Positions 21,179 through 21,814 are shown, counted from the stretch's first letter. The stretch: 64,000 bases of DNA from Escherichia coli O127:H6 str. E2348/69 (GCF_000026545.1 NC_011601.1); one strand, 5' to 3'. Notes: generated by a model not told the origin, from the letters alone. A program made the numbers and translations.

Positions 21179-21263
21179 TTTTGTATATTAGAATTCCGGC
21201 ATCACTGATACGTGCAGATATCCGTGTATACTAGACGTATAAATTGTACAGGAGCACGAGATC
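21179..21263 (+). promoter_or_regulatory. candidate promoter/operator of the ccdAB-like pair
   Basis: 85 bp AT-rich spacer with repeated gtatac/gtacag-type palindromic hexamers (tatccgtgtatactagacgtataaattgtacagg) directly upstream of the antitoxin start. Confidence 0.4.
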
Positions 21264-21497
21264 ATGACTGCAAAACGTACCACACAAAGTGTGACCGTCA
21301 CCGTCGACCGTGAGTTAGTCAATCGCGCTCGTGATGCAGGCTTAAATATGAGCGCCACCCTTACGGTTGCGCTCAATGCTGAACTTAAAAAACATGCAGC
21401 AACACGTTGGCGTGAAGAGAACGCAGAAGCTATCGCTGCGTTAAATCAATTGGCTGATGAAACCGGATGTTTCTCTGATGAGTACCGGAGCTTCTAG
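21264..21497 (+). CDS. ccdA: CcdA-family antitoxin
   Basis: 77 aa ORF; alignable with plasmid F CcdA from memory (TVTVD..., RW.EN.E, C-terminal F.DE.R.F); RBS aggag; sits 2 nt upstream of the toxin gene. Confidence 0.8.
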   Translation: MTAKRTTQSVTVTVDRELVNRARDAGLNMSATLTVALNAELKKHAATRWREENAEAIAALNQLADETGCFSDEYRSF

Positions 21498-21499
21498 CG

Positions 21500-21814
21500 A
21501 TGCAATTTACGGTATACCGCAGTCGCGGCAGGAACGCCGCGTTTCCCTTTGTTATTGATGTTACCAGCGACATTATTGGTGAGATTAATCGCCGTATCGT
21601 TATTCCATTAACACCTATTGAACGATTTAGCCGTATTCGCCCACCAGAACGGCTTAACCCAATCCTTTTACTGGTAGACGGCAAAGAATATGTGCTCATG
21701 ACGCATGAGACTGCAACTGTTCCAGTTAACGCGCTGGGAACGAAATTTTGCGATGCCAGCGCGCACCGAACGTTGATTAAAGGAGCATTAGATTTTATGC
21801 TCGACGGGATTTAA
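21500..21814 (+). CDS. ccdB: CcdB-family toxin (gyrase-poison fold)
   Basis: 104 aa [14 protein letters not shown]...[21 protein letters not shown]...VPV...DGI; recognisable similarity to F-plasmid CcdB (MQFKVY...FVDVQSDII...RRMVIPL...WGI) recalled from memory. Confidence 0.8.

Follow-up and report, generated by a model that had tools for sequence, protein, structure and literature searches.

Introduction

A chromosomal ccd toxin-antitoxin (TA) system of E. coli O157:H7, ccdO157, was reportedly described by Wilbaux et al. in 2007 (J Bacteriol 189:2712), and its occurrence across E. coli is said to have been followed by Mine et al. in 2009 (Genetics 181:1557), whose conclusion that the system decays was reportedly drawn from 395 isolates. 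In the 2007 work, the O157 CcdB is said to be a functional toxin that targets gyrase, the O157 CcdA to be labile to Lon, and the ccdO157 promoter to be weaker than that of ccdF, the system of plasmid F. Its abstract reportedly agrees that F CcdA neutralises the chromosomal CcdB and not the reverse. Gupta et al. (J Bacteriol, 2017) are said to have found that the chromosomal ccd operon contributes to drug tolerance.

In O157:H7, ccdO157 is described as an islet in the interval from folA to apaH (PMC7232551, PMC3184786, PMC7167474, PMC2654758), and K-12 has a 77-bp folA-apaH spacer at this site, which is plastic and may hold REP sequence instead (PMC7232551, PMC3184786, PMC7167474). The ccdO157 system is reported to fail at plasmid stabilisation and to be in decay across the species (PMC2654758); neutral evolution is reported for ccdB on the chromosome, in contrast to constraint on the plasmid-borne gene (PMC3920263). 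Three papers report that the F antitoxin neutralises the chromosomal toxin and not the reverse (PMC7354431, PMC10305079, PMC3920263), whereas a review gives the opposite direction and calls the O157 toxin attenuated (PMC10886550). We follow the former direction, on which the three papers reportedly agree with the 2007 abstract. The ccdB-1 gene of an AIEC strain of group B2, which has the identical placement, is reported to be transcribed and induced by bile salts (PMC7232551). Two other well-described systems are also relevant here. The operator of ccdF consists of GTATAC palindromes, on which alternating CcdA2-CcdB2 chains repress transcription according to the toxin:antitoxin ratio (PMC5389731). 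The ccdEch system of Dickeya dadantii (Erwinia chrysanthemi) 3937 is an anti-addiction module against ccdF (PMC2654758), and the O157-type antitoxin is reported not to neutralise F CcdB (PMC7354431, PMC3920263).

In this study we analysed a 64,000-nt stretch of the chromosome of the enteropathogenic (EPEC) E. coli O127:H6 strain E2348/69 (the window; positions are counted from its first letter), which carries a ccd-like gene pair between folA and apaH. The locus is almost certainly ccdO157, a type II TA islet of the chromosome, in the allelic form of E2348/69. The observation is genuine but ordinary, in that the ccdO157 system has been known since 2007. The first-pass annotation had already suspected that a chromosomal ccd was on record at this position, and the published islet bears this out (PMC7232551, PMC3184786, PMC7167474, PMC2654758).

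Organisation of the folA-apaH islet

The genes, signals and junctions of the islet are as follows.

20699-21178, plus strand: folA, annotated 480-bp CDS, upstream neighbour
21179-21200: left junction, about 22 nt after the folA stop (TTTTGTATA..GAATT..CGGC), alignable with the K-12/REP-type spacer
21183-21188: GTATAT, one-mismatch copy of GTATAC
21205-21232, plus strand: promoter-like site, -35 CTGATA (21205-21210), 16-nt spacer, -10 TATACT (21227-21232)
21226-21231: GTATAC, perfect palindrome overlapping the -10, putative CcdA/CcdB operator core
21237-21242: GTATAA, one-mismatch copy of GTATAC
21250-21254, plus strand: Shine-Dalgarno (SD) sequence AGGAG, 9 nt 5' of the ccdA ATG, read from the sequence
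21264-21497, plus strand: ccdA, antitoxin, 77 aa (WP_000125566.1), ATG start, PF07362 match
21487-21490, plus strand: GGAG within the ccdA 3' end, 9 nt 5' of the ccdB ATG, read from the sequence
21500-21814, plus strand: ccdB, toxin of the gyrase-poison family, 104 aa (WP_001160966.1), ATG start, intact ORF, PF01845 match
21810-21819: right junction TTTAAGACGC, common to the empty site in the aligned loci
21811-22659, minus strand: apaH, downstream neighbour, convergent

The 636-bp interval 21179-21814 runs exactly from the folA stop to the ccdB stop. The ccdA stop codon TAG (21495-21497) is followed by CG and by the ATG of ccdB (21500), which leaves a gap of 2 nt, and the two ORFs lie in different frames. 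The ORF list and a direct reading of the sequence agree exactly with the coordinates first proposed for two small ORFs (77 and 104 aa, separated by 2 nt) in the folA-apaH interval, and RefSeq places the identical two CDS in E2348/69, annotated as a CcdA-family antitoxin and a CcdB-family protein. The stop codons of ccdB and apaH overlap in the 4-nt sequence TTAA (21811-21814). An alignment of the window with K-12, empty-site, remnant and O157 loci shows that islet-unique sequence starts 3' of the left junction, and that the right junction provides both the ccdB stop (21812-21814) and the convergent apaH stop (21811-21813). The locus has the layout of a type II TA operon, with the antitoxin gene first, both genes closely spaced on a single strand, a promoter-like site and an SD sequence for each gene. 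The internal GGAG and the 2-nt gap suggest that translation of ccdB may be coupled to that of ccdA. Antisense ORFs at 21188-21376 and 21430-21699 have no independent support and were taken as by-products of the coding strand.

Family assignment of CcdA and CcdB

Both proteins give full-length Pfam matches, CcdA to PF07362 (E=1.5e-26, model positions 2-71 of 71), from the ribbon-helix-helix part at the N terminus to the CcdB-binding tail at the C terminus, and CcdB to PF01845 (E=7.1e-32, query 2-103, model positions 1-101 of 101); profile searches thus do recover the CcdA and CcdB families. Among PDB sequences, CcdB aligns end to end with solved proteins of the CcdB/MazF-type fold, namely Vibrio fischeri CcdB (2kmt, E=5e-17, residues 2-104) and F CcdB (1vub, E=1.2e-10), and CcdA aligns with F CcdA through residues 8-75 (2adl, E=9e-6) and with the CcdB-binding peptide through residues 45-76 (3g7z chain C). 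The only NCBIfam matches are to the F-plasmid CcdA and CcdB models, and both fall far under the equivalog cutoffs (NF010264/NF010262, 38.6 vs 100 and 61.2 vs 147 bits). Together with BLASTP identities to an F-type pair of 36% (CcdB) and 29% (CcdA), the Pfam, NCBIfam and PDB matches uphold the kinship to F CcdA/CcdB that had been recognised from the ORFs. Judged by sequence, the two proteins are true members of the CcdA/CcdB families, in a subfamily distinct from the F-plasmid orthologue group. Because the NCBIfam scores are so far under the cutoffs and the subfamily is distinct, details known from plasmid F may not transfer. A search of the PADLOC anti-phage defence library gives no match for CcdA or CcdB, and PHROGs gives unnamed families only.

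The 104-aa CcdB subfamily spans the Enterobacterales, with hundreds of same-length homologues in a search of about 5.8 billion proteins. Identity to the window CcdB is 66-74% for relatives in Enterobacter, Klebsiella, Salmonella and Citrobacter and 55-60% for those in Dickeya, Xenorhabdus, Yersinia and Morganella; plasmids of Hafnia and Klebsiella also encode members of the subfamily, at 71-74% identity. All aligned 104-aa members end in L/I-D-G-I/V, whereas F CcdB ends in F-W-G-I. In the gyrase-contact tail (Trp99-Gly100-Ile101 of F), the Gly-Ile is kept and the position of Trp99 is occupied by Asp, as it also is in the O157 allele and in all 104-aa relatives; V. fischeri CcdB has Thr there. 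Trp99 is reported to be crucial for the toxicity of F CcdB (PMC7232551).

Comparison with known ccd systems

We compared the window pair with the described ccd systems, of which ccdO157 is the closest. The two loci have in common the insertion site between folA and apaH, the gene order and the 636-bp interval; CcdA is 100% identical (WP_000125566.1), CcdB is identical at 102 of 104 residues, and nucleotide identity is 98.5% over 801 nt. Both strains also carry an F-type ccd on a virulence plasmid, pO157 in O157 and pMAR2 in E2348/69. The differences are G10 and E28 of the window CcdB, which are S10 and V28 in O157, and a few silent or intergenic changes such as G/T at 21260 just 5' of the ATG. 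We take S10 and V28 of O157 to be the derived states, because the consensus of relatives from other Enterobacterales genera has G10 and E28.

The window pair and ccdF have in common the Pfam families, the operon order, the near-abutting genes and a GTATAC hexamer of operator type over the promoter. Conserved motifs are the N-terminal MQF.VY, the IIPL core and the C-terminal ..GI of CcdB, and the RW.EN...G.F.DE.R tail of CcdA. However, the identity is just 36% (CcdB) and 29% (CcdA), with the window pair under the NCBIfam equivalog cutoffs; Trp99 of F is replaced by Asp in the window CcdB, and the 113-bp F operator with eight sites contrasts with an 85-nt upstream region with three recognisable hexamers. 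In addition, ccdF is plasmid-borne whereas the window pair is chromosomal, and ccdO157 is reported not to mediate post-segregational killing (PMC2654758).

The ccdEch system belongs to the same 104-aa subfamily with the C-terminal L/I-D-G-I, and the window CcdB is 59% identical to the Dickeya representative and 69-74% identical to chromosomal 104-aa CcdB of Enterobacter, Klebsiella and Salmonella, but the genomic context of ccdEch differs from that of the islet. V. fischeri CcdB (2kmt, 3jrz, 4ely) is the closest solved structure by sequence and likewise lacks Trp at the position of F-W99, but it is encoded in a superintegron of a different genus. A search of PDB sequences found no structure of an O157-type CcdB.

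E2348/69 carries a further ccd system on its EAF virulence plasmid pMAR2, where an F-type ccdA-ccdB pair (L023:22343-22868) lies beside a site-specific integrase gene. By BLASTP, the plasmid and chromosomal pairs are 36% (CcdB) and 29% (CcdA) identical.

Putative promoter and operator

The promoter-like site is the sole sigma-70-like match in 21100-21900, and its match to the consensus at 9 of 12 positions is not above chance taken alone. Three GTATAC-type hexamers with at most one mismatch occur in the 85 nt upstream, compared with a mean of 0.54 in shuffled sequences (P ~0.012). By analogy with ccdF, the GTATAC at 21226-21231 is probably the core of a CcdA/CcdB operator.

The upstream region was compared in a set of 13 alleles, comprising the window and 12 further E. 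coli alleles spread over the range of ccdB identity. Six of the 13 have a mutation at one of two key -10 positions, namely A>T at 21228 in L006, L007, L011 and L017, and T>C or T>A at 21232 in L008 and L010, respectively. These mutations also break the GTATAC palindrome. A broken ccdB is found in five of the six -10-mutant alleles, and the sixth has four missense changes, whereas of the seven alleles that keep the -10 a single one has lost an unbroken ccdB (Fisher P=0.03, uncorrected for shared ancestry). In the degraded copy of E. albertii (L019), T>C is found where 21232 aligns. The pattern of -10 mutations is consistent with the predicted site being the actual promoter, and suggests that promoter loss and toxin decay may go together. 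The -10 hexamer is intact in the window and O157 alleles, and this pattern among the alleles places the window allele in the intact class.

Other candidate RNA signals were considered in and around the pair. At 21524-21541, 25 nt into ccdB, a GC-rich hairpin with a T-run behind it resembles an intrinsic terminator; it was rejected as an attenuator because it folds with unremarkable energy (z=-0.94) and because the G10S change of the O157 allele disrupts the stem. The 5' leader (21179-21270) folds no better than shuffled sequences (z=-0.06), and Rfam and tRNA scans show nothing within or beside the islet.

Distribution and states of the insertion site

The islet is present at folA-apaH in 2,021 of 5,426 complete E. 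coli genomes (37%), always on the chromosome, and the site is empty or otherwise filled in the remaining ~63%. Carriers include O157:H7, JJ1886 (which we take to be the known ST131 strain), ATCC 25922 and ABU 83972, and also isolates from rectal swabs of healthy students, from wastewater and from a wild bird. The first-pass annotation had assigned the chromosomal ccd to some pathogenic lineages; the description is too narrow for an islet found in 37% of genomes, isolates from healthy persons, wastewater and a bird among them.

In the K-12 derivative ER1821R, folA ends at 679 and apaH starts at 757, and the 77 nt in between contain a REP-like palindrome. The short K-12 spacer given in the first-pass annotation is thus correct. 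The identification of the window as non-K-12 also holds, given the 100% identity of 21100-21900 (801 nt) to E2348/69 and the annotated genes of that strain, which fall into place along the window at the same offset.

Two alternative fillings of the site were observed. One locus (L004:4142-5480) holds a 46-aa ccdA remnant, a hypothetical gene and a DUF4291 gene on the opposite strand; another (L009:1841-2571) holds a gene annotated as 'IS1096 element passenger TnpR family protein', with the last 71 nt of ccdB remaining.

A degraded islet lies at the same place in the E. albertii type strain NBRC 107761 (L019:2760-3306), where 1 nt is deleted from ccdA, the ccdA stop codon is gone and ccdB starts with ATA. 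Either the insertion is older than the split of E. coli and E. albertii, or the islet was moved by recombination in the flanks. A plasmid origin of the window allele was rejected, since a search of the plasmid collection gives a lone match of at least 95%, to a record of 834 kb in which apaH is adjacent and which is therefore a chromosomal fragment.

The 3' end of apaH (21815-21845, its last ~10 codons) co-varies with the state of the site. Loci that bear ccd or a remnant encode a 282-aa ApaH ending in ..GEGEAVAS, with 6 extra nt, and empty or REP loci encode a 280-aa ApaH ending in ..GEAAAS; the variable segment thus extends ~30 nt into apaH. Among carriers, 21815-21845 is highly polymorphic (8 of 31 sites, pi 0.10).

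Decay of ccdB and conservation of ccdA

Across genomes, the two genes differ in their conservation. In all 2,021 carriers ccdA is at least 99% identical, and it is intact in 12 of 12 sampled E. coli alleles, even beside a dead ccdB. In contrast, among the 2,024 genomes in which ccdB gives a match at all, just 1,080 reach at least 99% identity, and the gene has been disrupted at least four times independently across the species. The lesions are as follows.

21681-21693: 13-nt deletion in ccdB, 261 genomes, in the 90-95% identity class
After 21617: 1-nt insertion in ccdB, ~7% of carriers by evenly spaced sampling
C84*: premature stop in ccdB, in sampled alleles
G95*: premature stop in ccdB with loss of the C-terminal tail, ~20% of carriers (12 of 60 evenly spaced rows), present in JJ1886

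By evenly spaced sampling of this clinically biased collection, ccdB is overtly broken in ~40-45% of carriers. The window allele has no lesion in ccdA, ccdB, either SD sequence or the -10. Nucleotide diversity (pi) and the ratio of nonsynonymous to synonymous changes among the 13 alleles are given below.

folA 3' end: pi 0.025, nonsynonymous:synonymous 1:15
Upstream spacer: pi 0.027, ratio not applicable
ccdA: pi 0.005, nonsynonymous:synonymous 4:2
ccdB: pi 0.021, nonsynonymous:synonymous 15:9
apaH: pi 0.020 over 21846-22190, excluding the last 31 nt (pi 0.10), nonsynonymous:synonymous 6:26 over 21811-22191

In this small allele sample, ccdB, the upstream spacer and the adjoining ends of folA and apaH have 4-5 times the diversity of ccdA, synonymous sites included. 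The 13 alleles were picked by ccdB divergence, which inflates the diversity of ccdB, but the identity bands over all genomes, which are free of this bias, show the same asymmetry between ccdA and ccdB. These findings reproduce the published picture of ccdO157 decay.

Other features of the window

A second insert relative to K-12, with low GC (0.40-0.48), lies at 41334-46506 between araC and yabI, genes that presumably adjoin each other in K-12. It encodes a ribokinase-like protein, a dihydrodipicolinate-synthase-family protein and a three-gene tripartite tricarboxylate transporter (TctC/TctB/TctA types). The gap between sgrT and leuD is just ~108 nt (about 52860-52970 in the strain annotation), and setA, which we take to lie between these genes in K-12, appears to be absent there in E2348/69. 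The Rfam matches in the window are expected core E. coli RNAs (ES003 sRNA, naRNA4, TPP riboswitch, SgrS and leu leader), and a tRNA scan finds no tRNA genes across the 64 kb.

463-515, 29630-29709, 50850-50949, 52706-52932 and 57691-57840: Rfam matches, with the TPP riboswitch 5' of thiB

Discussion

From what is known of the family and from the O157 literature, CcdB dimers of this locus would bind GyrA and trap gyrase in the cleavage complex, leading to growth inhibition, and CcdA would neutralise CcdB and be degraded by Lon. By analogy with ccdF, chains of CcdA and CcdB may repress the operon through the GTATAC-type sites over the -10, in dependence on the toxin:antitoxin ratio, and this repression is probably weaker than at the F operator because fewer sites are recognisable. 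Points against this picture are the Asp in place of F Trp99, the NCBIfam scores far under the F-plasmid cutoffs, the single promoter match that is not above chance, and the one review that reverses the direction of cross-neutralisation (PMC10886550). Across the species, the islet behaves as a decaying selfish remnant that reportedly mediates no post-segregational killing, in which the toxin is under relaxed constraint and often broken while the antitoxin gene remains intact.

That an ordinary intergenic region has here yielded two ORFs by chance, or a single mis-called gene, is scarcely conceivable: their small size is all that speaks for it, against the full-length Pfam matches and the PDB matches, the hundreds of same-length homologues in Enterobacterales and the same two CDS in RefSeq. 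The description of the locus as a functional accessory module stands in so far as its genes and signals are intact here, but it sits uneasily with the reported absence of post-segregational killing, the neutral evolution of ccdB and the many dead toxin genes. The pair could instead be intact in sequence and yet a silent or attenuated relic, with a CcdB that is too weak or too poorly expressed and a locus drifting to loss, a reading that we hold possible but rather doubtful. It draws on the excess of nonsynonymous changes in ccdB (15:9, against 1:15 in folA and 6:26 in apaH among the 13 alleles) and on the four or more independent disruptions that affect ~40-45% of carriers. In the literature, the failure to stabilise a plasmid (PMC2654758), the neutrality of chromosomal ccdB (PMC3920263) and the attenuation of the O157 toxin (PMC10886550) point the same way, whereas the identically placed ccdB of the B2 strain is transcribed and induced by bile salts (PMC7232551). 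The window allele itself is at odds with a relic, as it has no lesion in the ORFs, the SD sequences or the -10 and keeps the subfamily consensus at residues 10 and 28, where O157 is derived. The O157 allele, moreover, is reported to encode a functional gyrase toxin in the work of Wilbaux et al. (2007), a point on which two other sources bear indirectly (PMC10886550, PMC7354431).

Two further readings assign the islet a benefit. If stress-triggered loss of CcdA freed CcdB, drug-tolerant persister cells might form, and the host would profit; this we judge unlikely. The frequent independent loss of ccdB, including G95* in ~20% of carriers, argues against a generally selected function, and the site is empty or differently filled in ~63% of genomes, although the work of Gupta et al. 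in 2017 reportedly shows that chromosomal ccd aids drug tolerance. The bile-salt induction of ccdB-1 in AIEC (PMC7232551) would also favour such a role. Alternatively, the antitoxin may be selected alone, with CcdA serving as anti-addiction immunity against plasmid-borne CcdB of the 104-aa subfamily and not as half of a decaying pair. The uniformity of ccdA (at least 99% identity in 2,021 carriers, intact beside dead ccdB, and a pi of 0.005 that is 4-5 times under that of ccdB, the spacer and the flanking gene ends) would be expected of such a role. Plasmids of Hafnia and Klebsiella do bear CcdB of this subfamily at 71-74% identity, and the anti-addiction principle is reported to be demonstrated for ccdEch (PMC2654758). 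Nevertheless, we regard this as quite improbable, since the dead-toxin alleles bear -10 mutations that should silence ccdA too, the ccdA variants (4 nonsynonymous to 2 synonymous) give no signature of purifying selection, and the alleles were sampled by ccdB divergence; the identical O157 CcdA is also reported not to neutralise F CcdB (PMC7354431, PMC3920263).

Under the preferred reading, that of a ccdO157 allele within a decaying islet, little follows beyond the correct annotation of the locus, which flags a gyrase-poison gene that is intact here and broken in many relatives. The coexistence of two ccd systems in E2348/69, one on the chromosome and one on pMAR2, is relevant for work on this strain, and if the published cross-reactivity holds, the pMAR2 antitoxin can also cover the chromosomal toxin. 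The comparison of 5,426 genomes agrees with the conclusion drawn in 2009 from 395 isolates. The locus is a convenient natural example of the decay of a chromosomal TA system, with an antitoxin gene that remains intact in the sampled alleles while the toxin gene and the promoter deteriorate.
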